DNA from: Candidatus Aenigmatarchaeota archaeon | GTDB taxonomy: Archaea > Aenigmatarchaeota > Aenigmatarchaeia > CG10238-14 > SCSR01 | Length of the DNA: 64,000 nt | Reading direction: 5' to 3' | Assembly (NCBI GenBank): GCA_038998335.1 | Contig: JAVZHQ010000001.1 | Location: 160,001 to 224,000 of the forward strand | In this document: positions 1,481 to 62,588 of the stretch, piece by piece | Numbering within the stretch: the first letter of the stretch is position 1 | Layout: each line of letters begins with the position of its first letter | Notes under the pieces: generated by a model | Databases searched by the model: none | Seen by the model: the letters and a program-made list of their open reading frames with translations, nothing else | Told to the model about the DNA's origin: nothing | Position numbers and translations under genes: made by a program

Positions 1481-1496
1481 TGTTAGACGTTTAACA
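1481..1496. repeat. 16-bp palindrome, copy 1 (TGTTAGACGTTTAACA, one mismatch)
   Basis: 15/16 match to four perfect copies elsewhere; intergenic. Confidence 0.85.
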
Positions 1497-1538
1497 TTAA
1501 AAATCTCAACACTGTCTCTAAATAAGAATGCAGGGTAG

Positions 1539-1624
1539 TGCAGGGGCTGGGATTTGAACCCAGGAAGGCACTAAGCCACAGGGTTCTAAGCCCTGCGCCT
1601 TTGACCAGACTTGGCTACCCCTGC
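1539..1624 (-). tRNA. tRNA-Leu(TAG)
   Basis: Cloverleaf CAGGG-CT-TAG-AA-CCCTG, long variable arm, GTTCAAATC T-loop. Confidence 0.95.
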
Positions 1625-1680
1625 CTAATTTAAAATTCAAATCAAAATTAATAAATTGTTTTATTCTTTAAAATAATTTT

Positions 1681-2484
1681 ATGAAAAAAAGTTCAACTCT
1701 TCCTAAAAAAATTGATGTTGTCATGCTAACAAAAAACAGTGAAGAAATACTAGAGAAATGCCTTGATTCACTTTACAAGAACGTTCCAGTTAAAAGGTTA
1801 ATAATTGTCGACGGTTTTTCGCAGGATAGAACAATAGATATATTGGAAAATTACAACAAAGAGTATTCCAATATTAAAATAATCCAAGATTCTGGAACAA
1901 GAGCAACAGCAAGACAAAAAGGAATAAAGGCAGTTAAAACCAAATGGTTCATGTTTTTAGATAGCGATATAATTCTTTGCAAGGATTGGTTCAAAAAAGC
2001 TTCTAATTATATTAAAGAAAATGTTGGCATGATTTGGGGAGTTAATATAGATGTAGTTCCTGGTTTAAAGAGCGAGTTATTTTTTAGAGCTTTCAAGAAA
2101 TTTTCGGTAGGATACTTTAAAATCCGAGGCGGACTTCATGATACCCTTCTCCTTTTAGATGCTGTTAAAGATATAAAAATACCATCTTCTCTTCATTGTT
2201 ATGAGGATTATTATATAATGCAATTTGTTATTAACAAAGGCTATACTGTTGCAATTCCTGATGGTCTATACTGCTTTCATCTTAGACCTACGATTGACTG
2301 GGAATTGAGAGAAGGTTTAAAGTTAGCCTTTGAGGAAATAAAGTATGGGTTGTTTAAGTGTCACAGGTTTAAGTGTGTTTTTTACTATCCCTTTCTTCTC
2401 TTTTATTGGGTTTTACAAAAAATTAAAAGAAGAAAATCTTCTTCAAAAGGATTTTCCCTTAGCTATATGAACGCCAAACCCTAG
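1681..2484 (+). CDS. Glycosyltransferase family 2
   Basis: IIVDGFSQDRT and FLDSD (DxD) motifs. Confidence 0.9.
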   Translation: MKKSSTLPKKIDVVMLTKNSEEILEKCLDSLYKNVPVKRLIIVDGFSQDRTIDILENYNKEYSNIKIIQDSGTRATARQKGIKAVKTKWFMFLDSDIILCKDWFKKASNYIKENVGMIWGVNIDVVPGLKSELFFRAFKKFSVGYFKIRGGLHDTLLLLDAVKDIKIPSSLHCYEDYYIMQFVINKGYTVAIPDGLYCFHLRPTIDWELREGLKLAFEEIKYGLFKCHRFKCVFYYPFLLFYWVLQKIKRRKSSSKGFSLSYMNAKP

Positions 2485-3027
2485 AGCCCATATTAAAATA
2501 GGATAAGCTATCATTCTCTCCATCCCACCTTTTCCCAAACCAAGATCAGCTCCTAAACCAAAAAGAATTAAAGAAAGAAGAGAGATTATACCGAGAAATA
2601 AAAATAGAATAGAAAAAAACGATTTATGGATTTTGTAAGAGAAAACAGAAGCTAAGGCTCCAAAGAAAAAAGTAATGAAAGAAAAAATAACGTGCAATAA
2701 GCCAAAGTCTTCAGTAAAAATTCCAACTCCCATAGCTCCAATTCCCGCTAAAACTAAGCAAAACAGAAAATCTTTTGGTTCTTTTTCAATCAAAAGAAAA
2801 TAAGCAGAAATTAAAGTTAACAAACCAAGAAGAAAAACGGAAAAGTTAAAAATGAAAGCAGAAGGACCAACACCTAAATCACTGATATAATTGGAAGAAA
2901 CGCTATAGTTAGGATATAAAGCTTCTGCAATCTTGAGAGCTAGAATGAATTGCGCGCTTGCTACAAAAATTAAAAAGCCAGCTATCTTTCTTTTGTTTTT
3001 CTTCATTAAATAGAATTTCATTTTCAT
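2443..3027 (-). CDS. DUF998-like membrane protein
   Basis: YSVSSNYISDLG, H in TM segment, GGMERM motif, multiple TM helices. Confidence 0.8.
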   Translation of the reverse strand: MKMKFYLMKKNKRKIAGFLIFVASAQFILALKIAEALYPNYSVSSNYISDLGVGPSAFIFNFSVFLLGLLTLISAYFLLIEKEPKDFLFCLVLAGIGAMGVGIFTEDFGLLHVIFSFITFFFGALASVFSYKIHKSFFSILFLFLGIISLLSLILFGLGADLGLGKGGMERMIAYPILIWALGFGVHIAKGKSF

Positions 3028-3036
3028 TATTTAAAA

Positions 3037-3111
3037 TGCCCCCGCCGGGATTTGAACCCGGGTCTCCGGCTCGAGAGGCCAGTATCCTTGACCGGGCTAG
3101 ACTACAGGGGC
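3037..3111 (-). tRNA. tRNA-Glu(CTC)
   Basis: Cloverleaf CTGGC-CT-CTC-GA-GCCGG. Confidence 0.95.
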
Positions 3112-3213
3112 CTTATCTATAATTTAAAAATTTTTTAAATTTTTAAGTTCGCCCCCTTTTATAATTTAACTCAACCACATTAATTTCTTTATCTGTAATT
3201 TATTTATGAGAGT

Positions 3214-4068
3214 ATGGTTGAGCTGAAGAAAAAAGTTTTCAAAACAATTTCAAAATACAAGCTAATCGAGAACGAAGACAAAATTTTTGTTGCTTTAAGT
3301 GGAGGAAAAGACAGTGCTACTGTTTGTTTTCTGCTTTCTGAATACATAAGGGAAAATAAAATAGATTGTGAGGTAAACGCTTTTCATCTAATTCTTGGCG
3401 ATTTCATACCAAAAACTGTTCTTAACACAGTGAAAAAACAGGCAACTATATGCGAGGTTAAACTTAAGGTTTATGATGTTAAAAATTTTGGGATAGATTT
3501 CAAAAAATTAACAAACTTAGAAAGACCAATTTGTAGCTTTTGCGGAATAGTTAAAAGATATCTTATGAACAAAATTCCAAGAGAGGAAGGAGCAACAAAG
3601 CTTTGTACAGGCCATAATGCAGACGATTTCTTGGTTTTCTTCTTTAAAAATATGCTAAGCAAAAACATTTTTTGGATTTCAAAGTTTTTACCTAAGCTTG
3701 AAGGCAAGAATAAGCAATTAACGAGAATAAGACCTTTATTCTTTGTTAGCCAAGAAGAAACAAAAGATTTTTGCAAGAAAGAAGGAATCCCTTTTGTTGA
3801 AGAGGATGTTTGTCCTTATATAATCCTTAAACAAAAAATGGACAGAAAAAGAGAAAAATGGTACAAGCTTATTAAAGAAATTTCAAGGTGGCAACCAAAC
3901 TTTAGAGAAAACTTTTTAGAAAGCGTAATTTCAGTTGCGCAAATTTTAAAAAATAACTTTCCTGTTGAGTTAAAAGAGTGTGAAATCTGCAAAGAACCAA
4001 CAAGCATGAGAATATGTAGCTTTTGCAGGTTGAAAGAAAGAATAAAAAGTGGGCTCGGAGGGATTTGA
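3214..4068 (+). CDS. tRNA thiolation PP-loop ATPase (TtuA/Ncs6/TtcA family)
   Basis: SGGKDS, CSFC, TGHNADD, RIRPL, CPY and C-terminal CxxC..CxxC. Confidence 0.9.
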   Translation: MVELKKKVFKTISKYKLIENEDKIFVALSGGKDSATVCFLLSEYIRENKIDCEVNAFHLILGDFIPKTVLNTVKKQATICEVKLKVYDVKNFGIDFKKLTNLERPICSFCGIVKRYLMNKIPREEGATKLCTGHNADDFLVFFFKNMLSKNIFWISKFLPKLEGKNKQLTRIRPLFFVSQEETKDFCKKEGIPFVEEDVCPYIILKQKMDRKREKWYKLIKEISRWQPNFRENFLESVISVAQILKNNFPVELKECEICKEPTSMRICSFCRLKERIKSGLGGI

Positions 4069-4133
4069 ACCCTCACTACTGCGTTTCCTCAAAACCGAAG
4101 CGCAGTCGGCTATCCAGGTTACCGGACGAGCCC
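4050..4133 (-). tRNA. tRNA-Arg(TCG) with a 10-nt intron at 37/38 (4085-4094)
   Basis: Acceptor GGGCTCG/CGAGCCC; anticodon arm CTGCG-CT-TCG-G[TTTTGAGGAA]A-CGCAG. Confidence 0.85.
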
Positions 4134-4168
4134 TTAATTATCAATTTATTTTTGTGATTAAAGAAAAT

Positions 4169-5473
4169 TTAAGGATAAATTCTGTTTATTAACCTTGGAA
4201 AAGGAATAGCATCTCTTATATGCTTAAGCTTGCAAACCCACATTATAAACCTTTCTATTCCTAAGCCAAAACCTGCATGTGGTACTGAGCCGTATCTTCT
4301 TAGATCTATGTACCACTCGTAGGCTTTTGGGTCAAGTTTTTCTTCTTTTATCCTTTGGATCAATTCTTCTAAATCATGAATTCTTTGACCACCTCCAATA
4401 ATTTCTCCATAACCTTCTGGAGCAAGCATGTCTGCACTTAAAGTAACTTCAGGCCTTTTCGGATCAGGTTTATGGTAAAAAGCTTTAACTCCTTTTGGAA
4501 AATGAGTTAAGAAGAAAGGAACGTCAAACTTGCTAGCTAACCTTTTTTCTAGAATCCATGTTATATCATCACCCCACTTAATTTTAACTCCATCCTTTTG
4601 AAGAATTTCTATAGCTTGATCATAAGTTATTCTTGGGAAAGGTGGTTTGATCTTAAGTAAGTCTTGAGGGTCTCTTCCAAGTTTCTTTAGCTCTTCAGGC
4701 ATTTCCTTTGCAAGAGTATGACAAATATGAGTTATAAATTCTTCTTGCATCTTCATAGTTTGCTCTAAGTCACAAAATGGCTCTTCAACTTCAAGATGCC
4801 AAAATTCTGTTAAATGTCTTCTTGTCCTTGACTTTTCAGCTCTGAACGAAGGAGCTATAGTGAAAATTTTTCCTAGGGTTGAAATAGCAGCTTCAGCATA
4901 AAGTTGCCAACTTTGAGTTAGGTAAGCTTTTTTCCCAAAATAATTTACCTCGAACATCGTTGCTCCTCCTTCGCAAGCAGCTCCTGTTAGGCTTGGTGAA
5001 TGAAATTCCTTATAACCATGAGAAAGAAGCCATTCTCTGGCTATTTGTAAAACTTTCGACCTTATCTTAAGAATTGTTTGCATTTTTTCGCTTCTTAACC
5101 ACAAGTGCCTATAATCAAGTAAAAATTCTGGTCCATGATACTTTTTTGCAATGGGAAACCCTTCTAAAGATTTGTGAATAACTTTAATTTTTTCCGCAGT
5201 AATTTCATAACCTCCAGGTGCTCTTGGCTCCTTTTTAGAAATTCCTTCTATTTCAACTACTGATTCCAAAGTTATTTTTTCCAACTCTTCAAAAGTTTTA
5301 TCGTCAAACTTTTCTTTTTTGATAGTGCATTGAATAAATCCAGAACCATCTCTTATTATGTAAAAAATAATTCCTCCAGAGCTTCTTTTACCATAAACCC
5401 AGCCTCTAATCAAAACTTTCCCTTCTCTTCCTTTTTTCAACACTTCTTCTATTTCTGTAAGCATTTCCATCAC
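4169..5473 (-). CDS. asnS: Asparagine--tRNA ligase
   Basis: OB-fold N-terminus, YLTQSWQLY, FRAEKSRTRRHLTEFW, GEIIGGGQR, GFGLGIER. Confidence 0.93.
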   Translation of the reverse strand: MMEMLTEIEEVLKKGREGKVLIRGWVYGKRSSGGIIFYIIRDGSGFIQCTIKKEKFDDKTFEELEKITLESVVEIEGISKKEPRAPGGYEITAEKIKVIHKSLEGFPIAKKYHGPEFLLDYRHLWLRSEKMQTILKIRSKVLQIAREWLLSHGYKEFHSPSLTGAACEGGATMFEVNYFGKKAYLTQSWQLYAEAAISTLGKIFTIAPSFRAEKSRTRRHLTEFWHLEVEEPFCDLEQTMKMQEEFITHICHTLAKEMPEELKKLGRDPQDLLKIKPPFPRITYDQAIEILQKDGVKIKWGDDITWILEKRLASKFDVPFFLTHFPKGVKAFYHKPDPKRPEVTLSADMLAPEGYGEIIGGGQRIHDLEELIQRIKEEKLDPKAYEWYIDLRRYGSVPHAGFGLGIERFIMWVCKLKHIRDAIPFPRLINRIYP

Positions 5474-5505
5474 TTTATTTTTTTAATGTTATAGTTAAAT
5501 TTTTA

Positions 5506-5577
5506 CGCCCTGGGGGAGATTTGAACTCCCGACCTCCTGGTTAACAGCCAGTTGCTCTACCTCTGAGCTACCAGGGC
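5506..5577 (-). tRNA. tRNA-Asn(GTT)
   Basis: Cloverleaf CTGG-CT-GTT-AA-CCAG, discriminator G. Confidence 0.95.
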
Positions 5578-21195: not shown

Positions 21196-21702
21196 TCATA
21201 TTTTCTTTTCTCCCAGAACTTTTTCTTCTAGAATCTTTTTTAATTCCTCTGTACTTTTTCCAAAATATCTTTCAAATTCAGGCGTAGTCGTGATAGTTTT
21301 TGTTCTCCCAGCCTTTTCTGTTTTAATTAAACCTTTTTTTTCCAAAGCTTCTACATAACCATAAGCCTTGTTTCCTTGGTACTTTACTATTAAAGACTGT
21401 TTTATAGGCTGCTTCACAGCAACTATTGCTAAGGTTCTCATCATCCCATTACTTAAATCAGCAAAAGGAGCAAGCTTAGCTACTTTTTCCCTATACTCTT
21501 TTTTAACTCTTAACTCAAAGCCTTCTGGTGTTTCAACCAACTCTACGCCTCTATCTTCTTTACTTAACTCTTTTTTCAACTCCTCTAAAAGCTTTTTAAC
21601 TTCTTCTTCTGAGCCTATTCCAACTACTTTTGAAAGTTTTTCCAGGCTTAAAGGTCTGTCAGAAACGAATAGCGCAGCTTCAAGTAAAGCTTTTAGGTTC
21701 AT
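21196..21702 (-). CDS. scpB: SMC-Scp complex subunit ScpB
   Basis: LEAALF, TLAIVAVKQPI, TTPEFERYFG. Confidence 0.93.
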   Translation of the reverse strand: MNLKALLEAALFVSDRPLSLEKLSKVVGIGSEEEVKKLLEELKKELSKEDRGVELVETPEGFELRVKKEYREKVAKLAPFADLSNGMMRTLAIVAVKQPIKQSLIVKYQGNKAYGYVEALEKKGLIKTEKAGRTKTITTTPEFERYFGKSTEELKKILEEKVLGEKKI

Positions 21703-22501: not shown

Positions 22502-23188
22502 TCATGATTTTTTGGTTATGAAAATATCCTTAAAAAAATCTTCTTGCTCAGTAACTACTTTTTCGTTTTGCTCTAAATGAAGCAAGGGAACAAAATGGTC
22601 TATTATTTGGTCTCTGTTCCAATCTTCAACTATTTGACTAAACTTTATTTTATTAGCTTTTAACTTTTGCATAAGCTCATCAATTTCATTCATCACATGA
22701 TTAATCTTTTTTGTTATGTCTTCCTCGCTTATTTGGGCCTGAATTCTAGCTCTCCACATAACTCTTCTTTGGATTTTTCTTTCTCTTACTGCCAAAGCCT
22801 TTCTTAAGGCATTGATAAGCTCTTCTAAGGTTACTTGTCTTTTTGGAATTCTTTTCATAGGCAAGCCTAGTTGAACTAAGTTTGGGTCTATACCTAAGTC
22901 AACAAAAGGCTGTGCCTTGGCAACTTCTTCTACAGTCTCTTCTTCTTCGAACAAAGACAAATAATCTGCCTTAAGTCTAAGGAGAACTGCTGCTACAAAA
23001 ACAATTTTTGCGGGAATTCTAAAATCAAGCTCCTGAATTTTTTGAATATATCTTAAAAAACTATCAGCCAACTTAACCAAATCTATATCCCATGGGTTAA
23101 GGTTTTCTATACTTACTATATGATAAATTACTTCTTCCCAGCTTTCTTTCTTAAGAATTAAATCTAAGATATTTTCTTCTTGATTCAT
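22502..23188 (-). CDS. scpA: Kleisin ScpA
   Basis: LNPWDIDL, AAVLLRLKA, RQVTLEELINAL, FVPLLHL. Confidence 0.93.
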   Translation of the reverse strand: MNQEENILDLILKKESWEEVIYHIVSIENLNPWDIDLVKLADSFLRYIQKIQELDFRIPAKIVFVAAVLLRLKADYLSLFEEEETVEEVAKAQPFVDLGIDPNLVQLGLPMKRIPKRQVTLEELINALRKALAVRERKIQRRVMWRARIQAQISEEDITKKINHVMNEIDELMQKLKANKIKFSQIVEDWNRDQIIDHFVPLLHLEQNEKVVTEQEDFFKDIFITKKS

Positions 23189-25668
23189 CCTGGCATCTCC
23201 AAACCTAATATTTTTGACTCACCTCTATCCATGGTTACACCATAAACCCTATCCCCATACTTGATAGTTTCATCGTTATGAGTTATAACGATAAACTGAG
23301 CTTCTTTTGAAAGAGATTTTATCAATTCAGCAACTTTTCTTGAGTTTTCTTTGTCCAAAGCAGCATCAACTTCATCTAAAATGTAAAATGGAGCAGGCCT
23401 ATAGCTCTGAACAGCAAAGATAAAAGCTAAGGCAGTTAAAGCCTTTTCTCCTCCTGAAAGTGAATCTATGTTAAGTAAAGTCTTTCCTCCTGGGTTTGCT
23501 TGAATTATTAATCCTGACTCTAAATCTAAAGGATTCTCTAGCTCAAGGCTTGCGCTTCCGCCTGTCATCTTCTTGAATATTTGATTGAACTTTTCGCTCA
23601 ACTCTTTCAAGCATTTGTTAAAGACTTCTCTTCTTTTCTCTTCTATTTTTTCGATCATGTCTAGAACAGCTTTTTTCTCTTCTAATATTTTTTCATACTT
23701 TTTCTTGTACTCATCAAACTCAGCTTTAAACTTCTCGTATTGTTCTATAGCTTTAAAGTTTACTGCTCCCAAAGAGTTAAGCTCTTTAACAGTTTGTTCT
23801 ATAGCTTCTTCTAAAGCCTTAATTCCTTTTTCTATTGGTTTAATTTCACCATACTGCAAAGCTTCTACTTTTAAAGTTTCAAGCTCAGCTTCAATCTTCG
23901 CTTTCTGGATTTTTAGCTTGTTCAGCTTTGTTTGAATGTTAAGTCTTTTTTCATAAGCTCTTTTTCTCTCGTTTCTAAGTTTATCAAGCTCAAACTCAGA
24001 ATCTACCTTAATTTTCTCAAGGTCGATTATTTCCTTAGTCTCTTCTGCTTGGGAATACTTCTTCAACTTTTCCTCAAGCTCTTTTATTTCATTTTTCAAA
24101 ATTTCGTTTTCCTCTTGAAGCTTTTTCTTAAGCTTAAGATATTCTTCAACTTCTTCCTTAGCAGTTTCTACAGCTATTCTTGGATGTTTTCTTACAAGAT
24201 AACCTCCTGTCATAGCTCCACTTCTTTCTATCAAATCTCCGTCTAAGGTGACCATCCTAACCTTTCCAATTCCTATTGCTCTTGCAACCTCTAGATTTTC
24301 AACCAAAAGAGTGTCGCCAAAAACAAACTCTATAGCTGGTAAAATTTTTTGCTCGCACTTAATAACTTTTGCAACGCTTCCAAAAGCTCCTTTTATCCTG
24401 AAAGATTTTTCCTCAAGCTTTCTTGGTTTAATTTTGTTTAAAGGAATGAAAGTTGCCCTTCCTATCTTTTCTCTTTTAAGATAGTCTATGCAAAAACTTG
24501 CTATTTCATCATTCTCTACTATTATATCGTTAAGATGAGGACCTGCTGCAATCTCTACAGCAAGCTGATAATCTTGCGAAGTTTTTATCAAATTTTTCAA
24601 AGTTCCAAGAACTCCTTTTAAATTAAGGCTTAGTATTGCTTTCACGCTTGCTGGCACTTCTTCTTCTCTGACTTCAATAGTTTGTAACTTTTCTATTAGC
24701 CTATCTAACCTTTCTATTTCTTTCAAGTTTGAGTCAAGTTTATCCTTGTTGAAAAGGATTTTTGTTCTTAAGTAAGAAATTTCTTTCTCTACCTCAACTT
24801 TTTTTGAAATTTGAATGAGCTTGTCAGCAAGCTCTCTTATGCTTTTTTCTTTTTTCTCTAATTCTTCTTCTATCCTTTCAAGTTCTTCCTGAACTTTTTT
24901 ATTCTCTTCTTCCTCTTTTGCTATTTCCTGATCTAAAGTTTTCTGCATTTCTTCAAAGTTTTTTATTTTTCTAAAAATCAAGGAAGCTTTAAGAGTTTGT
25001 AATTGCTTTTGCAAAGTTTGGTATCTTATCGCAGCGTTTCTCTCTTCTTCTAATCTTTTAAAAATCTCATAGCGTTCAGTAATTATTATTTCTGCTTCCT
25101 TTAACTTTTGGTCTACTGCCTCTAATTCTCTTTGAGCTTTTTCTTTTTTATCATTATATTCAGCTATACCAGAAATTTCATCTATTATAAACCTTCTTTC
25201 CACAGGGTTCATTTCTATTATGTTTGTAACATCACCTTGCAGTATTATGTTATGACCATCAGGCCTAATTCTTGCTGAAGAAAGAACTTCTAGAATCTTT
25301 TCTCTTGTTGTAGTCCTTCCCTGAAGCTTGTAGATGGAAACTCCTTTTCTGTTAACTTTTCTTGTTATGGAAATTTCTGGTTCATCGAAAGGAAATTCTT
25401 TGTTCGAATTATCAAGGTACAAAGTTACAGAAGCATACTGAGCAGGAGCTTTTCCATTACCACCATGAAAAATAAGCTCGTGAAGCCTTTCTGCTCTTAA
25501 ACTTTTTGCTGAAATTCTTCCTAAAACGAAGCATACAGAATCTACTATGTTTGATTTTCCGCTTCCGTTTGGGCCACAAATTATATTGAAACCTCTAAGT
25601 AAAGGTATTGAAATCTTCTTGTTGAAACTTTTAAAACCTTGTAAGGTTAGTCTTGTTATGCAAGTCAT
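23185..25668 (-). CDS. smc: Chromosome segregation ATPase Smc (short, 827 aa)
   Basis: GFKSF, GPNGSGKSN, hinge GRATFIPL and GDLIERSGAMTGG, LSGGE, DEVDAALD. Confidence 0.95.
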   Translation of the reverse strand: MTCITRLTLQGFKSFNKKISIPLLRGFNIICGPNGSGKSNIVDSVCFVLGRISAKSLRAERLHELIFHGGNGKAPAQYASVTLYLDNSNKEFPFDEPEISITRKVNRKGVSIYKLQGRTTTREKILEVLSSARIRPDGHNIILQGDVTNIIEMNPVERRFIIDEISGIAEYNDKKEKAQRELEAVDQKLKEAEIIITERYEIFKRLEEERNAAIRYQTLQKQLQTLKASLIFRKIKNFEEMQKTLDQEIAKEEEENKKVQEELERIEEELEKKEKSIRELADKLIQISKKVEVEKEISYLRTKILFNKDKLDSNLKEIERLDRLIEKLQTIEVREEEVPASVKAILSLNLKGVLGTLKNLIKTSQDYQLAVEIAAGPHLNDIIVENDEIASFCIDYLKREKIGRATFIPLNKIKPRKLEEKSFRIKGAFGSVAKVIKCEQKILPAIEFVFGDTLLVENLEVARAIGIGKVRMVTLDGDLIERSGAMTGGYLVRKHPRIAVETAKEEVEEYLKLKKKLQEENEILKNEIKELEEKLKKYSQAEETKEIIDLEKIKVDSEFELDKLRNERKRAYEKRLNIQTKLNKLKIQKAKIEAELETLKVEALQYGEIKPIEKGIKALEEAIEQTVKELNSLGAVNFKAIEQYEKFKAEFDEYKKKYEKILEEKKAVLDMIEKIEEKRREVFNKCLKELSEKFNQIFKKMTGGSASLELENPLDLESGLIIQANPGGKTLLNIDSLSGGEKALTALAFIFAVQSYRPAPFYILDEVDAALDKENSRKVAELIKSLSKEAQFIVITHNDETIKYGDRVYGVTMDRGESKILGLEMPG

Positions 25669-42037: not shown

Positions 42038-42223
42038 TTATTTTTTTCTTTCCCTTCTTAAGTTATGAGTTTGCCAAGCATATTTTCTTATTTTTGAGCT
42101 TTTTCCATAGCCACAAGCAGCACAAACTTTTGTTTTAACATTATAGCTATGCCTCCCACATCTTCTACATCTTACATGAACTATTTTTCTTCTTTTACCC
42201 ATGGAGGGGGTTCCTTTTACCAT
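42038..42223 (-). CDS. rpl37e: 50S ribosomal protein L37e
   Basis: [11 protein letters not shown]...CRRCGRHSY...CAACGYG. Confidence 0.96.
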
Positions 42224-42284
42224 AAAAATCACTAGGCAACTCTTATTATTTATATGGACTTTTCTTAATTTTAATATAGAAAGA

Positions 42285-44591
42285 ATGAGAATAAGAGTAT
42301 TTAAATTTGTTTTTCCACTTATAATACTTTTTCTTGCAATTTCGATAGCAAAAGCTCTTGAGTATTCTTCCGCTTCTGTAAATTCTACCATAGCAGGGAA
42401 ACCAGCAGAATTTAAAGTTAAATGGTACGATCCTTCAGGTTTATCTGGTTATATTTTTTCTTTAGACAATTGTCAAGGTAGCTTTGTTAATGATAGTTTT
42501 GTTGTTCTTTCCCAAACAAAAACCTTTAACGTTTCTAGTTTAAGTGTAATTTTTGGTAATAACTTAACCTCAGACTTAAGTGCTTTAAACACACTAGGCG
42601 AAGGTTTAACTTATGACGTAGAAGAAAGCGAAACAAGTAAAGAAGAAAGACAAGAAATTTTAAAGGGGCCTTCTTATTACCTTATCACTTTAAACCCATG
42701 GACAAACCCTGAAAACGCTTTTTCTTCAGACAATTTATACGCTTACACTTCACAAAGTGGTAGTTTTCAGGATTATGGCTATAACCTTTCAATTCCTCAA
42801 GACGCAAAAATTATTTCTGTTTTTATTGGTTTCGAGGCTTATGCTTCTGGTAATGAAAGGTTAGAAATTAGTATTTCTTATGACGGTGGAAATACTTATT
42901 TAGGATATACCTTTGATTTACCTTCACAAGACCAAAACCAAACTGTATGGGTAAATTTCACTAACGCTACAGATTGGACTCCAGAAAAACTAAACGATAC
43001 AAATTTCAGAGTAAGGATAAGAAGTGTAAAAGTAGGTGCTATGCAACCAATCTATGTTGACTATCTTCCTATAAATATAACTTACTCTCTTCCACCAAAG
43101 TATCAGCTAGAAGTTTGGCATGACTCTTTACCAATAAGCTATGAAGGAATTTTAACTTCTATTTCCATAATTTTAAACTTTACTTCCACAGAAACAAAAT
43201 ACTATGATTTTGAGGCTTATAATTGGGTTTCAAGTTCATGGGTTAAAGAAGGTTGTGATTCTGGTTTAGTGTTTGCAAATTCGTCAACGATTTGGTATTG
43301 TAATTTTTCTTCTAATGTTATGAACTTTATTTCTCCTTCAGGTGGGATAAGAGTAAGGTTAAAATCTGAAGAAAGCGAGGAAAAAGCTGTTTTAAAAGAA
43401 GATTATCTTAAATTCTCTATTAGTTTTGCTCCTACAGAATCTTGGAGCACTACCACAAAAACCTTAAGCTCTACAGTAAGTTGTAAAGTTAGATGGTTAG
43501 TTTATGCAAACAATACTTTAAATGAATGGAGTAAAACTGAAATTTTCGAGTTTTTAACGGCTCAGGAAGCTTTTTGTGGAAATAACGTATGTGATTCAGG
43601 AGAAACTTGTTCTAATTGTTTGCAAGATTGTCCTTGTCCAGGCTCAACAGGATGTTGTGGAAATTCTTGCGGTTGTGAAGAAGGACAAGTTTGTGAGAAT
43701 AATGTTTGTGTAGCTTCAGCTCCTCAACCTCCTCCACCAGCTTTACCACCTTCAATTCCTGTATGTAACCCAAAAACTGATTTGAATTGTTGCATTCAAA
43801 CCTATCCTCAAGGATGTTGCGATTGCCCAAGTTTTGGTTACGTTAACTGTAGCATTTCACCTTTTAATCAAACTTTTGAGGATTGTAAAGAGTTGTGTAT
43901 GAATTTATGCCCAGGAGGATGTTCTGTTTTCTCTAATTCTTCTTCATGTTTAAACGCTGGTTGTTACTGGTGTAACGGAATTTGCCAGCAATTTGCTTGT
44001 GCAAGAGATTGTTCTGTTTTTCTTAGTCCCTCCTTATGTTTAAACGCTGGGTGTGAATGGTGCGATTCAGAATGCAAAGAGCTTTGCTTGCTTAACTGGA
44101 GTTTCGTCCTTCCTTTGAGGATAGAAACTTTTGTTGATTATGAAGTTGAAGTAACAATAAAAATCAAAAACGAAGGAGAAAAAAGTTTTAACAACGTAAA
44201 AATTCAATTAGTAAACATCTCACCTGATTTTGAGTACAAAATCTTACCAGAGTTTTACCCAAAAATTTTACCAGGAGAAACAAAAAGTTTTGTTTTAAAC
44301 ATCAAACCTAAAAAAGTTGGAAGTTATATAATAATTATAAATGTAAGCTCAGATGAGGCTTTTCACTTAGCTTATGTTGGCCTATCTTCTCAACAAGCTC
44401 CAGCTAAAAAGGAGCTTATAACTATGACTGCTTTGCTTTGGTTAGCAGTTGCTGTAATAATTGTTTTTATCATAGTTTCTTACAAGTTGTACATTAGAGA
44501 AAAAATTAAAGTTGAAGAAAAGATTCCAATCAAAAAAGTCGAAAAAGTGAAGAAAGTTAAAAAAGTTGAGAGAAAACGCAAGAAAAGATAG
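42285..44591 (+). CDS. Large Cys-rich membrane-anchored surface protein
   Basis: Signal peptide, [19 protein letters not shown], poly-Pro linker, two CSVF....CLNAGC.WC repeats, CARDB-like domain, TM and basic tail. Confidence 0.8.
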
Positions 44592-46831: not shown

Positions 46832-47410
46832 ATGCCTTTTGGTCTTATCGAAAGATTAAGAAGGAAAGATAGTTCGGAAGAGTTTTCTAAGATTGAGAAA
46901 ACTGAATATAAGTCAACACTTAACAATTTGTTAAATGAATTATATACTACAGTAAAAAATTGGAAAAAGGAAATAAGCGAAAGGGGTTACATTCCTTCTC
47001 AACAAGAAAAAATATACTTGCAAGATTTGATGACAACTACCCGTAAAGCTTCTCGAGTTGCTTTTAATCTAGGCGATCAAAAGCTTCAAGATTTGCTATT
47101 AAGCCTTTATGTGAATCTTAAACAACTACCTTCTGCTAAGCATGTTGAGACTGTAAAAGAGATAGAAAAGGCTGTTGAAAAAATAATGGAACATTACAAG
47201 AAAAAACATAAAATAGAAGAAGAAAAACTAAAGAGCGAGATTCCGGGAATGTTTGTAGTTTTGCTCATTTCTTTTCTTTTGTTCTTATTTGTTTCTTACG
47301 GAAGTTTTTCCTCAGGATATTTTGTTAAATCTTCTGATTTGATTTCAATTTCTTTGGTTTTTTCTTTTCTTCTTGCTTTTTCTGTGATTTTACTTTTAAG
47401 AAATTTATGA
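46832..47410 (+). CDS. Hypothetical protein with two C-terminal TM helices
   Basis: Helical N-terminus, SGY-containing TM hairpin. Confidence 0.65.
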   Translation: MPFGLIERLRRKDSSEEFSKIEKTEYKSTLNNLLNELYTTVKNWKKEISERGYIPSQQEKIYLQDLMTTTRKASRVAFNLGDQKLQDLLLSLYVNLKQLPSAKHVETVKEIEKAVEKIMEHYKKKHKIEEEKLKSEIPGMFVVLLISFLLFLFVSYGSFSSGYFVKSSDLISISLVFSFLLAFSVILLLRNL

Positions 47411-47420: not shown

Positions 47421-47436
47421 TGTTAGACGTCTAACA
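47421..47436. repeat. 16-bp perfect palindrome TGTTAGACGTCTAACA, copy 2
   Basis: Exact; between convergent stop codons. Confidence 0.95.
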
Positions 47437-47441
47437 AGAAA

Positions 47442-48998
47442 CTACTTTACCACGAGCTTTATTATTTCTTTTACATCTCCATAAACAACTTTTTGTTTAC
47501 AAAATCTTGTTAAGTAATAAGCGGCTTTTGCAGAATTTGTAGCTGTTGTCTTATAACCTATATCTTCAATTGGAGCGACAATCATACAAGTATCACAGAA
47601 AACTTTACCTCCGGCATCTTCTATTGTAAGAGTATAACCAAGATTGTCGGCTTGCATCTTGACATCTCTAGAAGTGCAGACCCAAAGGTCGACTCCATCT
47701 CTAATCTTTTTACCAAAAAGATATTTTGATATTGTTTTTATTTCATCAAGAGAAGAATGTGGACAACCAAATGCAACTAAATCAACATCTTTTTCTTCAC
47801 CTGTATTTAATTTTTCTTTTGTAGATTTAAGATCTATTTCTTCAAAAAATAGTGTGTCCTCTATTCTGTCTAAAAAAATACTCTTTCTCACCGCTTCAGG
47901 AGTAATGCCCTCTACGTGAAAGAGAGCTAATGATCCTGAGGCTGCACCTGCCGCACCTAAAGCTTTTAATCTTTCTAAAAATGGAATCTCAGCTATTCCG
48001 TGATAGAGTGATCGAAAATTCAAGCTCGGAGAACTTTTTTTAATTCCACTTATGTAGGGGATTTTATCTTTAATCTTTTCACCAAGCCAATATCCAAAAG
48101 TAGCAAAATCATTTATGGTTTTTAGATTTGCTTCAACTTTTATTTTTATGTTCGGATTTCTGTTTTCATCTAGATGTAAACCATATACCGGAGCAAAACC
48201 TGCTATAGCATAGAATAGAGCGCTCAAACCTTCTCTATTAGTTCTTAAACCAAGAACTGAATTAGCATAAACCACAGCGGAACTCTCGGCCCAGTGTAGA
48301 TTAACATTACCAAAGCTTTTCAACCTTGATATCAAAGAGTATATTCTCGGCAAATGATAAGGTGTGCAAGTGCAAGTGATCATGGCTCCCATTTTTTCAT
48401 AGGCCTTGATTATTCTAATCTGTTTTTCTGCAAAATCTTTAGGAACTCTTTGTTCCCTCCATCTAGTAAGGTCCATTCCAGCTGGGTTGAGCATCGAGAG
48501 TTGATTAACTCTGAAATCTTCTGCAAGATCTTCTATAAGATTTAAGCCAGCGTCTGTTATGGTTTTGTAGGAAACGCCAGATATCTGCTTTGGTAGATTT
48601 TTAGTTTCGATAAATTCGTCGGTTTCATATAATTCTGCAATCTTGACCAACTTTTCTTTTATTTCTTCAGATAAATTCAACTTCTCTATCTTGTCTATAT
48701 CTACTTTTTGTGGTTTCCAACCAGAAATCTCAAACGGAATTTTTCCAAATATAGCACCCCATATCGTAATAGCATCATCTTTATTTTCAATTATAATCTT
48801 TTTAGGAGCAAAACCTCTTTTTGCTAAACTGTATATTTTATAACTACCAACTGTAGAACCTATGGAACCAGGAATATGCAACTCTTTTCCGGCAATGTTC
48901 TGGCCATTGAGCTCATGATCTTTTTGTATCACATTCCCGTTTAAATCTACACCATCAAGCCAAGAAATTGGTTGACTAGTTTTTAAAATTTCCATCAC
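47442..48998 (-). CDS. Aconitase X, swivel (DUF126) and catalytic (DUF521) parts fused; phosphomevalonate dehydratase-like
   Basis: ISWLDGVD, GSTVGSY; ISGVSYKTI, TCTCTPY, WAESSA, GCPH, DTCMIVAP, TNSAKAAYY. Confidence 0.88.
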   Translation of the reverse strand: MMEILKTSQPISWLDGVDLNGNVIQKDHELNGQNIAGKELHIPGSIGSTVGSYKIYSLAKRGFAPKKIIIENKDDAITIWGAIFGKIPFEISGWKPQKVDIDKIEKLNLSEEIKEKLVKIAELYETDEFIETKNLPKQISGVSYKTITDAGLNLIEDLAEDFRVNQLSMLNPAGMDLTRWREQRVPKDFAEKQIRIIKAYEKMGAMITCTCTPYHLPRIYSLISRLKSFGNVNLHWAESSAVVYANSVLGLRTNREGLSALFYAIAGFAPVYGLHLDENRNPNIKIKVEANLKTINDFATFGYWLGEKIKDKIPYISGIKKSSPSLNFRSLYHGIAEIPFLERLKALGAAGAASGSLALFHVEGITPEAVRKSIFLDRIEDTLFFEEIDLKSTKEKLNTGEEKDVDLVAFGCPHSSLDEIKTISKYLFGKKIRDGVDLWVCTSRDVKMQADNLGYTLTIEDAGGKVFCDTCMIVAPIEDIGYKTTATNSAKAAYYLTRFCKQKVVYGDVKEIIKLVVK

Positions 48999-49125
48999 TT
49001 AGCTCCCCTTCTTCTTAAAGCATATTTTACTTCATAACACTATCTCACTAGTGTTTCTGAATTACATTAAGCCAAAAAAGGGACCTTAATATTAATTAAA
49101 AATAAAGTATAAAAAAGTAGTTTCT

Positions 49126-58099: not shown

Positions 58100-58141
58100 T
58101 TGATAAAATCAATTTTATTTTTGATTTAAATAATTTAATTT

Positions 58142-58912: not shown

Positions 58913-59338
58913 CATTTTTTTAAATTCTTTTATTTGCTCTTTTGCTACAGGTTGAAGCTTAACTTTTATTTTATTCACATTAAACCATTTAATATCACAA
59001 ACATCACTTCCTGCTTTTAATTTGCCCCCAACAATCTTTGTTTTAAAACAAAAAACCAAGTGATGATGATTATCATGAAACTCTTGAGTTAAGTGAAAAA
59101 GTTCTAAAGGTTTTATTTTAAGACTAGTTTCTTCTTTAGTTTCTCTTATTAAAGCTTCTTCCAAGGTTTCTCCTGCTTTTACCTTTCCTGTAGGAAGACC
59201 CCAGAATCCTGGAAAAGCTTTTTTTGATCTCTTTCTCTTGACTAATAAAATTTTTCTATCTTTTTCGATCAAAGCACTAACAACTGCTGAAATCTTTCTT
59301 GGAGTTTTAATGTTTCTTTTAACTGTACAAATTTTCAT
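58898..59338 (-). CDS. Nudix hydrolase
   Basis: GKVKAGETLEEALIRETKEET. Confidence 0.88.
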   Translation of the reverse strand: MKICTVKRNIKTPRKISAVVSALIEKDRKILLVKRKRSKKAFPGFWGLPTGKVKAGETLEEALIRETKEETSLKIKPLELFHLTQEFHDNHHHLVFCFKTKIVGGKLKAGSDVCDIKWFNVNKIKVKLQPVAKEQIKEFKKMLDAF

Positions 59339-59356
59339 AAGATTTTATTGTTTTTG

Positions 59357-60496
59357 TTAAAACTTATTATTTGGTACAAGACTTTTCAGTCTTTTTAAAG
59401 CCTCTACTTTTTCTTTTTTCTCTATTTCAGCTTGCTTTAGAATTTCATCTAAAAATCTTATTGATTCGTCCATAGCTTTTCTTTCTATTGGCTTAGGAAC
59501 ACCATCCTTGCCACCGTAAGCATAAGAATATTTTACTGGGTCTTTCCAGCTTGGCTCTGAGCCATAAATTATTTCAGAAACTAAAGCTAAACCTCTTACA
59601 GTAGAAGGGCCTATACCTTTTATCCCTAAGAGCTCTTCGTAATTTTTTGGTTGAAACTCATAAGCTTCTTTCAAAGCGTCCCAGTTAACATTTCTCGGCA
59701 TTTTTAAAACATGAACAAAAAACTCTTTTCTTTTAAAAGGTAGAAATTGAGTTAAACTTTTTTGATAAATTGGCTTTATTGATAAGAAGTCATTTCTAAT
59801 TTTTTGTGGTCCTTCTTTTACTAAATCGACTGAAATTTTTCTTGCTTCTTCGCTTTGCTTAGCTGTCATATCTAAAACATTTTCTTTTTTTATATCGCAG
59901 CAAATTGCAGAATGAGGCTCTTCAACGAAACTTTTAACGTTTTCAGAAATCCAATGGTACCTGCGAGCAGTTTTATCTTGAATATTCATTCCCTGTTGAA
60001 CAACAACCCAAGATTTTTCTGTAAAGAAAAATGTGTGATGGTATAAAGGATACTCGCATTGGATAGCAGTATTATCTACTTTTGCGCTCATTCTGCTTGC
60101 ATACTTTAATTCTTCCATCTTTTTTGAAGATAAAGAAAGAGTTTCGCTGATTTTTTCAATTTCTTTTGGAGTTTTTCTTGAAAACTTCCCTTTTCCGCCT
60201 GCAATTCCTAAGCCAAATTTTTCTGGTCGAATAACAGATTTAAGAATAGCACATACTGTTGTGGTAACTCCTGAAGAATGCCAATCATGTCCTATAACAC
60301 AACCAAAAGCTTGGAACCAAAAGGGATTTGAAACTCTTCTTAGTAATTCTTCTTTTCCATATTCTTCTATAACTAAAGTAGCAATTTGTTTTCCTAACTT
60401 TTTCATTCTTACTAAAAGCCAGAAAGGTACATGCCCGTAATGTAAAGGAAGTTCTGCAATCCCAGTTTTTTTCATGAGTCTCACTTGGCTTATCAA
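59357..60496 (-). CDS. DUF763-family protein
   Basis: LPLHYG, WFQAFGC...DWHSSG.TT, VVQQGM, GGKDG.P. Confidence 0.88.
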   Translation of the reverse strand: MISQVRLMKKTGIAELPLHYGHVPFWLLVRMKKLGKQIATLVIEEYGKEELLRRVSNPFWFQAFGCVIGHDWHSSGVTTTVCAILKSVIRPEKFGLGIAGGKGKFSRKTPKEIEKISETLSLSSKKMEELKYASRMSAKVDNTAIQCEYPLYHHTFFFTEKSWVVVQQGMNIQDKTARRYHWISENVKSFVEEPHSAICCDIKKENVLDMTAKQSEEARKISVDLVKEGPQKIRNDFLSIKPIYQKSLTQFLPFKRKEFFVHVLKMPRNVNWDALKEAYEFQPKNYEELLGIKGIGPSTVRGLALVSEIIYGSEPSWKDPVKYSYAYGGKDGVPKPIERKAMDESIRFLDEILKQAEIEKKEKVEALKRLKSLVPNNKF

Positions 60497-60598
60497 AATT
60501 TATTTTAAAATAAAGTTAATTAGATTTTTGGGAGTAAATTTCCGCTGATTCCGATTCATTAAAAATAAAAGTTATTAGGTTAATTAAATTTTATAGCT

Positions 60599-60673
60599 GG
60601 ACAGGTGGCGCAGCCTGGTTAGCGCAATCGGCTGATAACCGATAGGTCGAGGGTTCAAATCCCTCCCTGTCCA
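60599..60673 (+). tRNA. tRNA-Ile(GAT)
   Basis: ATCGG-CT-GAT-AA-CCGAT. Confidence 0.95.
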
Positions 60674-60967
60674 TTTTGCTATGTTATTCCAGTAAATTAA
60701 AATAAAAGGAAACATTTTTTAAAATTATTTTTTTGTATTTTTACAACTTTTTAGGTAGAAATTAATAGATATAGAGAGATTTCTACGCTACTTCAAAATA
60801 ACATCCAGCACACAAACAAGCGACTGTTCCTCTACAGGAACAACCTACCGAAACTCCTCTTGTAGTCCAAGCTTTAATCCAAACACCCGCTCTCCGTGAC
60901 TAGCATCTTATAGAGTGTGTTATTAATAGGTAAGTTTTTAAATCTTTTTTGTTTTCTATCTTAAATT

Positions 60968-61207
60968 ATGATTAATTATAGAGAAAAAATCATCGAAATT
61001 TTAAAAAAATCAAATGGTTTAACTTTTTCAAGTATAGAGGTTGAATTACTCAGAAGCTTGAGTGAAAGTGAGAAAAGAGAGTACAGATTTGATAAGTTTT
61101 TTGTTGCTATTTATGATTTAGAAAATGATGGTATAATATTTAGGGGAAAAGGAGGAGAATTTGAGAAAGGAAAGTTTTACTTAAAGCTTAAAAATAGCAA
61201 TTCCTAA
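60968..61207 (+). CDS. Small winged-helix-like protein
   Basis: IIEILKKSNGLTF...LENDGII pattern. Confidence 0.5.
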   Translation: MINYREKIIEILKKSNGLTFSSIEVELLRSLSESEKREYRFDKFFVAIYDLENDGIIFRGKGGEFEKGKFYLKLKNSNS

Positions 61208-61214
61208 CTTTTTT

Positions 61215-61835
61215 TTGATGAAAGGATTATTTATAGTGTTCGAAGGAATTACCGGCTCTGGTAAAAAAACCCACATAAAACTTTTAGTAGAAAAACTGAA
61301 AGAAAAGGGGAAAGAAGTTACTGTAATTTCTTTTCCTAATTATGAAAGTGAAATAGCAAGATTTACAAAAAGAGCTGATTTAGACGCTTACACTCAATCT
61401 TTACTTTTTGCTGCTGATAGAAGTCTTTACCAGGAAAGGATTAAAGCTTTACTTGAAAAAGGAAACGTAATTCTTTGCGATAGATATTGTTACAGTAACT
61501 TTGCCTATCAAGCTGCTAAAGGCTTACCTTTAGGATGGCTTAAAGAAATAGAAAAACATACCATTAAGCCTGATATTGTTTTTTTGATTGATGTGCCAGT
61601 TGAAATTAGCATGAACAGAGTTAAACAGTTAAGCATTGAAGATTTCACTAAAAAGGAAATACTTGAAAGGTTGGAAAGGGAAAAAGACTTTCTGGAAAAA
61701 ATAAGGGAAATTTACTTGAGTTTAGCTGTAACTGATAAAGAAACTAAATGGTTTGTTATTAATGGTTCAGAAGATATTTCTGTTAATCATGAAAAAATTT
61801 GGAAAAAGGTAAAAGAAGAACTTAAAATTGAGTAG
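61215..61835 (+). CDS. tmk: Thymidylate kinase
   Basis: FIVFEGITGSGKKT, LLFAADR, DRY..SN.AYQ, PDIVFLIDV. Confidence 0.88.
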   Translation: MMKGLFIVFEGITGSGKKTHIKLLVEKLKEKGKEVTVISFPNYESEIARFTKRADLDAYTQSLLFAADRSLYQERIKALLEKGNVILCDRYCYSNFAYQAAKGLPLGWLKEIEKHTIKPDIVFLIDVPVEISMNRVKQLSIEDFTKKEILERLEREKDFLEKIREIYLSLAVTDKETKWFVINGSEDISVNHEKIWKKVKEELKIE

Positions 61836-61850
61836 AGTTTTTTTCAACTT

Positions 61851-61866
61851 TGTTAGACGTCTAACA
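61851..61866. repeat. 16-bp perfect palindrome TGTTAGACGTCTAACA, copy 4
   Basis: Exact; symmetry extends to 20 bp. Confidence 0.95.
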
Positions 61867-61904
61867 AAAAATAAAATTTAAAAATAGAAAATTAATTTAC
61901 AATT

Positions 61905-62513
61905 ATGAAGCTTTTGACCTCGCCGGTCGAGGCTTTAAAGGAAGCAAAAACAAAAAAAAGTTTTGGTAAAACCATAGGAATATTAGTAATTTCAGCAATA
62001 CTTTTTGGTTTATCTGTAGCAATATTTCCTCTAGGATTTTCAACAACTCCTGTTAGGGCAGTACCAACCTTTTCTACAATGACCTTTGCTGTAATTTTTG
62101 TAGGTACGTTAATACTTGGTTTATTCTACGGCTATCTAGCAAAGTTAGTAATGAACATTCTTGGAGGTAAAGGGAAGTACTTCGAAGGTCTAACGACAAT
62201 AACCTACTCCATATTCCCCTTTTCTGTAGGTTTATTTATAGTAGCACTACTAAATTACGCGTTACTTCAAGTGCAGCAAATAGCCCAATATTATTTGGTA
62301 ACAATCTTTATCCAAGGGTTTATTCTATCGGTATTTACAGCACTCGGGTTAGCAGTATTTTACAAAGGACTTAACGAACTTTTCCAAGTGGATATGATAG
62401 CTGCATTGGTTGGTGCAGGAATACTTTTCTCAACACTTTGGATTGCATTTTATGGACTAATCTTTAGTTTGATGGGAGCTTTTATCCCGCTAGTTCCATC
62501 GATTAGACCATAA
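61905..62513 (+). CDS. Yip1-like multi-pass membrane protein
   Basis: SP.EA, LGGKGKY, YS..P, five TM segments. Confidence 0.75.
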   Translation: MKLLTSPVEALKEAKTKKSFGKTIGILVISAILFGLSVAIFPLGFSTTPVRAVPTFSTMTFAVIFVGTLILGLFYGYLAKLVMNILGGKGKYFEGLTTITYSIFPFSVGLFIVALLNYALLQVQQIAQYYLVTIFIQGFILSVFTALGLAVFYKGLNELFQVDMIAALVGAGILFSTLWIAFYGLIFSLMGAFIPLVPSIRP

Positions 62514-62572
62514 AATCGTAAGCTAATTTTTCCTTTTTCTTTTTTTCAAAAATTTTTAAAGAGTTTTTTTAA

Positions 62573-62588
62573 TGTTAGACGTCTAACA
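62573..62588. repeat. 16-bp perfect palindrome TGTTAGACGTCTAACA, copy 5
   Basis: Exact; symmetry extends to 18 bp. Confidence 0.95.

Follow-up and report, generated by a model that had tools for sequence, protein, structure and literature searches.

A repeated 16-base palindrome in a small archaeal genome and its probable reader, a 69-residue protein with a predicted Cas2-like fold

Which protein reads a 16-base palindrome that recurs between functionally unrelated genes of a small archaeal genome? The question was raised by a 64,000-nucleotide (nt) stretch of Aenigmatarchaeota (DPANN) DNA, here called the window, which corresponds to G000:C1:160001-224000, that is, to part of contig C1 in the host genome G000, a 1,009,365-bp assembly of 9 contigs with approximately 33% G+C that is 90.4% complete. 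The original prediction took the palindrome for a parS-like, centromere-like or chromosome-organising site recognized by an archaeal ParB-like or other dimeric protein. Our analysis, in which all evidence is computational, confirmed that the repeated palindrome is genuine and pointed to another reader. The palindrome is probably the operator or recognition site of a 69-residue protein with a predicted Cas2-like fold, the gene for which lies approximately 94 kb beyond the end of the window, and binding of this protein to the palindrome is predicted.

The palindrome and its copies

A pattern search located exact copies of the palindrome, TGTTAGACGTCTAACA, at window positions 47421, 49126, 61851, and 62573 and a copy with 15 of 16 matching bases at 1481, all of them where they had first been reported. 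At up to two mismatches, the window contained 5 matches against 0.01 expected, and none of 100 shuffles yielded 5. The copies and the genes flanking the first of them are the following (window coordinates):

1481-1496, no strand: one-mismatch copy TGTTAGACGTTTAACA (15/16), with the aIF2-alpha start 58 nt downstream and the 3' end of tRNA-Leu 41 nt upstream of it
652-1422, minus strand: aIF2-alpha open reading frame (ORF)
1538-1624, minus strand: tRNA-Leu
47421-47436, no strand: exact copy inside a 31-nt spacer between two convergent stop codons
49126-49141, no strand: exact copy in a divergent spacer, with the AcnX start 127 nt off and the TatD start (49177) 35 nt off, both downstream
61851-61866, no strand: exact copy, with the thymidylate kinase stop codon (61835) 15 nt before it and the start of a Yip1-domain gene (61905) 38 nt downstream
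62573-62588, no strand: exact copy, 59 nt after the Yip1 stop codon (62513) and 50 nt upstream of tRNA-Glu (62639-62715)

As had been noted, the neighbouring genes share no function (aIF2-alpha, tRNA-Leu, AcnX, TatD, thymidylate kinase, Yip1, and tRNA-Glu), and the copy at 47421 does lie between convergent stop codons, 10 nt after the ORF at 46832-47410 (plus strand) and 5 nt after AcnX (47442-48998, minus strand). Together with its right flank (47437-47448), this copy forms a 28-bp inverted repeat with the region of copy 49126, the left flank of which (49114-49125) is the reverse complement of 47437-47448. The copies at 61851 and 62573 form the left and right boundaries of a block, made up of the Yip1 gene and one site, that is missing in the related genome G005.

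Across the whole genome, 17 copies were exact, 4 differed at one position, and 4 at three, whereas no copy differed at two; all of them lie on C1, which accounts for 802 kb of the 1,009-kb genome. The 21 copies with at most one mismatch range from C1 position 137,932 to 798,234, a distance of approximately 660 kb (copies outside the window are named below by their position on C1). All 21 are intergenic, even though crude ORF calls occupy 94% of C1, and the earlier remark that the copies avoid genes despite the scarcity of intergenic DNA thus extends to the entire genome. The motif was also found in all five other searched genomes of the genus and in a second genus. In eight orthologous site pairs (comparisons with G003 or G005) the motif was identical at 16 of 16 positions in six and at 15 of 16 in two, while only 31 to 48 of 60 nt (52 to 80%) were identical in the 60-nt flanks. 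Within the genus, positions are kept at the cluster of genes for tyrosyl-tRNA synthetase (TyrRS), TFB, and the Cas2-fold protein, at the thymidylate kinase gene, and at copies 785355, 796443, 798234, and 137932/139305. In G006, which belongs to another genus and also has 21 copies, none lies beside an orthologue of a G000 neighbour. Since the copies are exclusively intergenic, are kept at orthologous places, and are present across the genus and in a second one, the site behaves as a selected dimer-binding site. This part of the original prediction, a selected site for a symmetric dimeric protein, was upheld. With regard to the idea of a restriction site, the genome contains the hexamer GACGTC 24 times (19 within the motif), a count close to the Markov expectation of 18.

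A 69-residue protein family with private palindromes

Three of the copies surround a single small gene:

G000:C1:317854-318063, minus strand: 69-codon gene encoding the Cas2-fold protein

Two copies precede its ATG, an exact one at 39 nt and one with a single mismatch at 4 nt, with a TATA-like stretch between them, and another exact copy lies 40 nt downstream of the gene. Past the downstream copy follow a TFB gene, a further copy, and the TyrRS gene. The same layout was found in G001, G003, and G005 of the same genus. The orthologue in G012, from another genus, is preceded by two copies of a one-base variant and followed by TFB. In G005, the end of the second TFB gene is 39 nt away from the copy that precedes the Cas2-fold gene.

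The AlphaFold2 model of the protein, built on an alignment of 29 sequences, reached a mean predicted local distance difference test (pLDDT) score of 96.3 and shows the order strand-helix-strand-strand-helix-strand. The top Foldseek matches were Cas2 structures (3exc, TM score of 0.72 and E value of 6.6e-4; 2ivy, E value of 9.2e-4; and 5g4d), with TM scores of 0.64 to 0.72. The Cas2 profiles scored under their cut-offs (20.7 versus 23.8 bits for Pfam and 21.1 versus 24.5 for TIGR01573), and automatic annotation labels some family members Cas2. The profile PF20803 (PaaX_M, the central Cas2-like domain of PaaX) matched 17 of the 29 members at an E value of ≤1 (best, 1e-5), the G000 protein scoring 14.3 bits against a cut-off of 24. 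No PaaX entry appeared among the Foldseek or VIA-align matches or the seven PDB sequence matches (E ≤ 10), which is not evidence of differing folds. The only invariant residues of the family are L24, S35, W37, L45, G57, and D8, the last being the Cas2 active-site Asp at the end of strand 1, present in 29 of 29 aligned members; Arg22 is nearly invariant. No helix-turn-helix (HTH) was found in the 69-residue protein. Cas1 (PF01867) had no match in G000, and a crude 22-mer spacing scan revealed no regularly spaced repeat array. The region C1:5263-8400 contains irregular, in-frame-like direct repeats with spacings of 66, 69, 78, and 135 nt and is probably a gene for a repeat protein.

Homodimer prediction yielded a score of 0.62 compared with 0.00 for the best of three controls, with at least 96% contact agreement between runs and a partner pLDDT of at least 92; this score was attained for 20 of 30 proteins solved with two copies of one chain and for 1 of 23 solved with a single chain, and the pass may reflect likeness, because Cas2 dimers have already been solved. 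The predicted interface comprises residues 3-8, 32-36, 42-53, and 58-69 (strands and helix 2) and leaves helix 1 outside. The modelling thus supports a homodimer that is predicted to form through the beta-sheet and helix 2. A hidden Markov model (HMM) search of 1.84 billion representative sequences retrieved 124 clusters at an E value of ≤0.001, almost all of 60 to 80 residues.

Of 41 related genomes, 25 were found to encode homologues of the protein, G009 having the most (16 matches). We took 74 loci, among which 65 distinct family gene copies were present. A perfect palindrome of at least 12 bp with at least 4 G/C was found within 90 nt upstream of 47 of the 65 family genes, compared with 23 of 1,103 G000 ORFs. 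The palindrome ends 0 to 22 nt before the ATG in 43 of these 47 cases, and in 37 a TATA-like word precedes it at a distance of no more than 14 nt. Most family members have a palindrome only upstream, within the promoter. The frame TGT-N3-ACGT-N3-ACA fits 23 of the 47 palindromes, and the remainder are centred on, for example, ATAT, AGCT, or AATT. When upstream inverted repeats were taken as 6-bp arms around a 4-nt spacer, the centre was self-complementary in 41 of 45. A double-stranded site with two-fold symmetry needs such a centre, whereas the loop of an RNA hairpin does not, and we therefore regard the site as double-stranded and two-fold symmetric.

The palindrome type tracks residues 13-19 of the protein, in helix 1. 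Members with helix-1 VEKVRINR pair with TGTTACAGCTGTAACA (5/5, across genera), those with T(E/A)RR(Q/R)xxR with TGTCTCACGTGAGACA (4/4), those with ARVRxFR with TGTAATACGTATTACA (5/5), those with VAVAVKVWR with TGTAAAACGTTTTACA (2/2), and those with YFKK(R/K)INx with GGTACATATGTACC (3/3), while helix-1 VLQVQVNR pairs with the motif of the window. Among 47 protein-palindrome pairs and with 300 label shuffles, the alignment columns most strongly associated with the half-site class were 18, 15, 17, 34, 16, 51, 14, and 13 (z of 8.8 to 5.6), which fall mainly in the first half of helix 1. It is the concentration of the associated columns in one helix that is informative.

Protein and palindrome also occur together. 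The frame TGTNNNACGTNNNACA is present at least three times in 17 of the 25 genomes that encode the protein and in none of the 16 that lack it; the latter contain 0 to 2 frame copies each, and a reversed control pattern occurred 0 to 2 times everywhere. Nearly all listed frame matches are perfect palindromes. In G009, the genome with 16 protein matches, the frame matched 40 times; at least 11 types are represented, and two different ones often stand next to each other. In G030, from another family of the order, the palindrome TGTTATACGTATAACA has 26 copies among the matches listed, and the 22 that were examined comprise 17 intergenic copies and 8 with a start 30 to 52 nt away. At G000:C1:344566-344581, a single perfect palindrome, TGTCATACGTATGACA, stands where G003 has the window motif, with orthologous neighbours on both genomes; no family gene of the matching type was detected in G000, and G004 has a family gene with TGTCATACGTATGACA upstream.

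Probable action at the sites and competing explanations

The linkage of gene and palindrome, the covariation with helix 1, the co-occurrence, and the homology to ChrB considered below are the grounds on which we consider the 69-residue protein the probable reader of the palindrome. We infer that it binds DNA, represses its own gene, and has an effect at the dispersed sites. A Cas2-type homodimer formed through the sheet and helix 2 would leave two basic helices 1 free, each of which (residues 13-26) would read one 8-bp half-site; contacts to the constant bases would come from Arg22, whereas recognition of the variable triplet, TAG in this lineage, would fall to residues 15-18. At its own promoter, one site separates the TATA-like box from the start codon, and another lies just upstream. 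With a site between the TATA-like box and the start, the protein should repress itself, and self-repression is what we think it probably does.

The approximately 18 other sites lie at gene boundaries, after stop codons or T-tracts and/or just upstream of A-rich or TATA-like promoter elements. A stop codon is at most 15 nt away from 10 of the 21 copies, compared with 3.7 ± 1.7 for random intergenic 16-mers (0 of 1,000 samples reached 10), and a start codon is 30 to 50 nt off in 8 of 21, compared with 3.3 ± 1.7 (13 of 1,000 samples reached 8). When two tRNA genes are added, 10 of the 21 copies lie 30 to 50 nt upstream of a gene start. Spacers between convergent ORFs hold 7 of the 21 by crude calls, or 6 when a tRNA gene is allowed for, against 3.3 ± 1.7. 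An A-run of at least 5 is present within 6 nt in 23 of 42 outward-reading arms, compared with 3.2 ± 1.7. Squeezing of the motif between a T-tract terminator and an A-rich promoter element can also explain these T/A-run flanks, and we therefore left them out of the recognition site. Neighbours of the copies include both TFB genes of the genome (C1:316818-317750 and 428811-429743), the genes for seryl-tRNA synthetase (SerRS), TyrRS, aIF2-alpha, SUI1, and an Lrp regulator, tRNA-Glu, and two tRNA-Leu genes, as well as what is presumably RNA polymerase subunit D, named from its sequence alone. Single genes bracketed by copies are those for AcnX, Yip1, SerRS, TFB, an AAA ATPase, and the Cas2-fold protein. 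A bound dimer would most likely be a position-dependent regulator or a roadblock or insulator between packed genes, and its action at the dispersed sites may consist of regulation, roadblock, or recombination.

Several observations weigh against recognition by the 69-residue protein or against a simple role for it. The VIA-align Z scores of the model (≤7.9) tie with those of other ferredoxin-like folds, and the invariance of D8 leaves room for a nuclease role. A perfect upstream palindrome is missing from 18 of the 65 family gene copies, and the ACGT-centred frame is absent from 5 of the 25 genomes with the protein, some members using other centres. None of the five family genes detected in G030 (88% complete) carries TGTTATACGTATAACA, nor was a family gene found in 20 examined TGTTATACGTATAACA loci of that genome. 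Relatives share labels, and the covariation and co-occurrence statistics consequently overstate independence. The gene of a 98-residue protein, discussed below, was detected in 9 of the 11 genomes that contain the motif (at most one mismatch) but not in any of the 30 others, so that co-occurrence alone does not single out the Cas2-fold gene. Moreover, 6 or 7 of the 21 copies are placed between convergent genes, in spacers that offer no promoter for regulation, and several lie at insertion or deletion junctions, which a plain repressor model does not predict.

Could the copies be parS-like centromere or Smc-loading sites for a ParB-like or other partition protein? The original prediction counted 12 of 16 positions in agreement with the parS string that it quoted, and the arithmetic is correct. 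The string fits TGT-N3-ACGT-N3-ACA, with the four differing bases inside the N3 triplets, two of three in each, and the resemblance is explained by this common frame of a family of private palindromes, which covers both sequences. The genes for Smc-ScpAB were indeed located in the window, in which no ParB_N domain, and hence no parB, was found:

23185-25668: Smc
22502-23188: ScpA
21196-21702: ScpB

To these genes may be added, in favour of a partition site, a strongly conserved and perfect 16-bp palindrome in approximately 20 copies, the local clustering of the copies (10 gaps of less than 2 kb versus 2.0 expected, a value of 10 reached in 0 of 2,000 randomisations), and a MinD/ParA-type ATPase gene beside the Cas2-fold orthologue in G011 (L026:700-1461) and G023 (L024:2361-3134), which represent two genera. 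However, the ParB_N profile (PF02195) had no match at an E value of ≤0.1 in G000, with a control search positive in 11 of 14 reference genomes, and the only Cdc6_C match over the cut-off was located on contig C2, where none of the 21 copies occurs; neither the co-occurring ParB genes nor the clustering near cdc6 that had been proposed as checks were thus found in this genome. The copies are spread over 660 kb, none of the six MinD/ParA-like ORFs of G000 is near any of them, and the copies of G006 have no orthologues of the G000 neighbours beside them. Neither cumulative GC skew nor coding-strand bias on C1 showed a clear turning point, and the skew yielded no usable origin position. The clustering is partly explained by duplicated 3' ends of AAA ATPase paralogues, each of which holds a copy, and three clustered copies derive from them. 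The lack of ParB_N, of an association with cdc6, and of a nearby ParA, together with the wide spread, makes a centromere highly improbable, and the ParB, Smc-loading part of the earlier interpretation is not supported. The absence of a ParB-like protein and the 8 of 21 copies (10 with tRNAs) that lie 30 to 50 nt upstream of starts are largely what the original prediction had itself named as speaking against it. A terminator hairpin or protein-binding stem-loop in the untranslated regions of either strand is just as hard to credit. Proximity to stop codons (10 of 21 copies within 15 nt), T-runs before the copy on both strands (23 of 42 arms), and the identical hairpin that both strands would form are in keeping with a role as RNA, but the hairpin is weak (-4 kcal/mol), the T-run comes before the stem and not after it, the self-complementary centre found in 41 of 45 repeats is not needed by a hairpin loop, and the palindromes of the family promoters lie between the TATA-like box and the start codon.

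Two further explanations, both unlikely in our view, bear on the Cas2-fold gene itself. Another DNA-binding protein could read the palindrome, for example the 98-residue, winged-helix-like protein encoded at C1:145911-146207, with the Cas2-fold gene being merely its most conserved target. A copy lies 85 nt upstream of the 98-residue gene in G000 and G001, the gene co-occurs with the motif as described above, and in PaaX, according to a review, DNA is read by a winged helix while the Cas2-like domain dimerises (PMC9493321; PF20803). Against this, none of the copies listed on the relevant contig of G005 is upstream of the gene, in G003 its contig has no copy, the protein matches no Pfam or NCBIfam family, and a separate binder cannot explain palindromes that are private to paralogues and track helix 1. 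Neighbour clustering detected no conserved partner gene common to 34 loci of the Cas2-fold family (TFB at 4, ribosomal protein L11 at 4, SUI1 at 3, and MinD at 2), and none of 7,999 scored candidates was a fused or longer relative at an E value of ≤0.001, which is weak evidence. Alternatively, the palindrome could be a recombination or mobility site at which the Cas2-fold protein nicks or cuts with its catalytic Asp, the flanked genes being cassettes in the manner of REP/RAYT elements or integrons. Single genes bracketed by copies, the invariant D8, a protein family that is multi-copy in some genomes (16 matches in G009), and many copies at contig ends in relatives would fit such a role. So would the junctions. 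The Yip1 gene and one copy were gained or lost between G000 and G005, with exactly one copy left at the junction, since in G005 (L074) the thymidylate kinase gene, one copy, and tRNA-Glu follow each other directly. Compared with the near-identical G001, the alignment breaks exactly at copy 146293, where an 8.6-kb G000 block (C1:146309-154931) is replaced by 1.6 kb of unrelated sequence (L142:1223-2837), and an insertion of 644 bp lies directly next to copy 316791, its first part being a copy whose flank matches that of copy 317798 (32-nt match). A few copies share 9 to 12 nt of extra flank, the AcnX pair as 28-bp inverted repeats. On the other hand, most copies share the 16 bp only (838 of 843 arm pairs have no more than 5 nt in common past the motif), positions are kept at orthologous promoters within the genus, and most family members have a palindrome only upstream, in the promoter. 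There was no Cas1 match, no regularly spaced array in the crude scan, no HUH motif, and no transposase-sized protein, and the breakpoints are few, 3 to 4 of 6 falling at copies in a small sample of 25 kb that was selected for holding copies.

Some further features of these regions were observed. At C1:138018-142546 (L012:4018-8546), two paralogous AAA ATPase genes (425 and 450 amino acids) have the same last approximately 40 codons, each followed by a palindrome copy; copy 142547 follows what remains of a third 3' end of this kind, and G001 has one gene fewer. The tRNA-Glu of G005 (L074:1600-1690) has 18 extra bases in the T-arm region compared with that at window 62639-62715, which may be an intron at an unusual position. 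The closest G000 homologue of the MinD/ParA-type ATPase, at C1:631052-631813, is distant from every copy. In the window, Rfam detected an eleventh tRNA at 4050-4133 on the minus strand (46.6 bits) that ARAGORN did not list and that may contain an intron or be otherwise unusual, and the ORF at 42201-44591 on the plus strand encodes 796 residues with no Pfam match at an E value of ≤1e-5.

If the 69-residue protein does read the palindrome, the Cas2 fold alone can read DNA sequence, which would explain DNA binding by ChrB, and orphan "Cas2" genes of small-genome archaea would have to be re-labelled as regulators. Because the family supplies numerous natural pairs of protein and site with differences in a 3-bp triplet, it could serve as a compact system in which to study, and perhaps to re-engineer, DNA recognition. 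DPANN archaea have few recognisable transcription factors, and a regulator with sites at both TFB genes, at several genes for tRNAs and aminoacyl-tRNA synthetases, and at numerous gene borders could have a major part in organising the expression of a 1-Mb genome. A bolder extension, which we put forward as doubtful, is that Cas2-derived mini-proteins are DNA readers with an evolvable code (residues 15-18 against the 3-bp triplet) and that, in this lineage, one of them marks approximately 20 boundaries as a roadblock or insulator and, via the retained Cas2 site, as recombination-prone cassette junctions.

Comparison with known systems

ParB-parS resembles the present system in having a perfect 16-bp palindrome whose nearly invariant copies number from a handful to a few dozen. 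It differs in that about half of the archaeal copies are promoter-proximal and in that ParB_N, clustering at cdc6, and an adjacent ParA are all lacking here, so a parS-like appearance is insufficient for inferring a centromere. The 21 dispersed intergenic palindromes, three of them around the gene, recall REP/RAYT, but the flanked gene encodes a 69-residue Cas2-like fold and not an HUH-Y1 transposase. Like Cas2 itself, the protein has the conserved strand-1 Asp and a sheet dimer, the latter by prediction, and its predicted fold is Cas2-like. In contrast to Cas2, it is accompanied by no Cas1 match, scores under the curated cut-offs, has a promoter palindrome tied to its gene, and is shorter than the matched Cas2 chains of solved structure (69 versus 78 to 108 residues). 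We found no description of stand-alone Cas2-fold DNA-binding proteins in the open full-text literature, subscription journals and supplements being outside the scope of the search.

The effect of some archaeal regulators depends on the position of the site relative to the B recognition element (BRE) and the TATA box. Sites downstream of TATA would repress, and sites upstream of BRE/TATA or past a terminator would activate, shield, or terminate; proteins of the Reb1/TTF-I type act as roadblock terminators. The site positions expected for such position-dependent regulators and roadblocks match those of the dispersed copies, but the protein families are unrelated.

The closest parallels are two bacterial regulators. 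A review describes PaaX as an autoregulated repressor with the inverted-repeat operator TGATTC(N27)GAATCA, in which a winged helix and a C-terminal domain are combined with a dimerisation motif (PMC9493321). PaaX (PF07848/PF20803/PF08223) reads DNA by its N-terminal winged helix and senses its ligand by the C-terminal domain, and neither is present in the archaeal protein: the PaaX-type winged-helix and PaaX_C domains had no Pfam match in the 69 residues. Since PaaX reads DNA by the winged helix, its Cas2-like part is not the DNA reader, which keeps alive the explanation by a separate binder. ChrB is the nearer relative. The family profile aligns with residues 5-73 of the ChrB-family protein P0229 (hhalign, 95.3%; E value of 2.3e-8), and the longer, weaker HMM matches are ChrB proteins, with ChrB_N and ChrB_C domains by Pfam. 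In Ochrobactrum tritici, ChrB is mainly dimeric, the purified protein binds the chr promoter, which has an imperfect inverted repeat, the R18A and R23A substitutions lead to constitutive expression, and mutation of the predicted HTH was without effect (PMC3817168). Provided that the numbering of P0229 equals that of O. tritici ChrB, which we assumed, these two arginines, Arg18 and Arg23 of P0229, face positions 17 and 22 of the archaeal protein, namely, a top specificity column and the nearly invariant Arg. ChrB has approximately 320 residues and a C-terminal sensor domain, whereas the archaeal protein is the bare 69-residue domain, ends at residue 69, and is without the remainder of ChrB_N and without ChrB_C; the Cas2 Asp, which it retains, is replaced by Gln in the ChrB-family protein compared; and it forms paralogue families with private palindromes. 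The approximately 70 N-terminal residues of ChrB-family proteins are homologous to the whole archaeal protein, and the best-supported description of the latter is an archaeal stand-alone relative of the N-terminal domain of ChrB and the central domain of PaaX.

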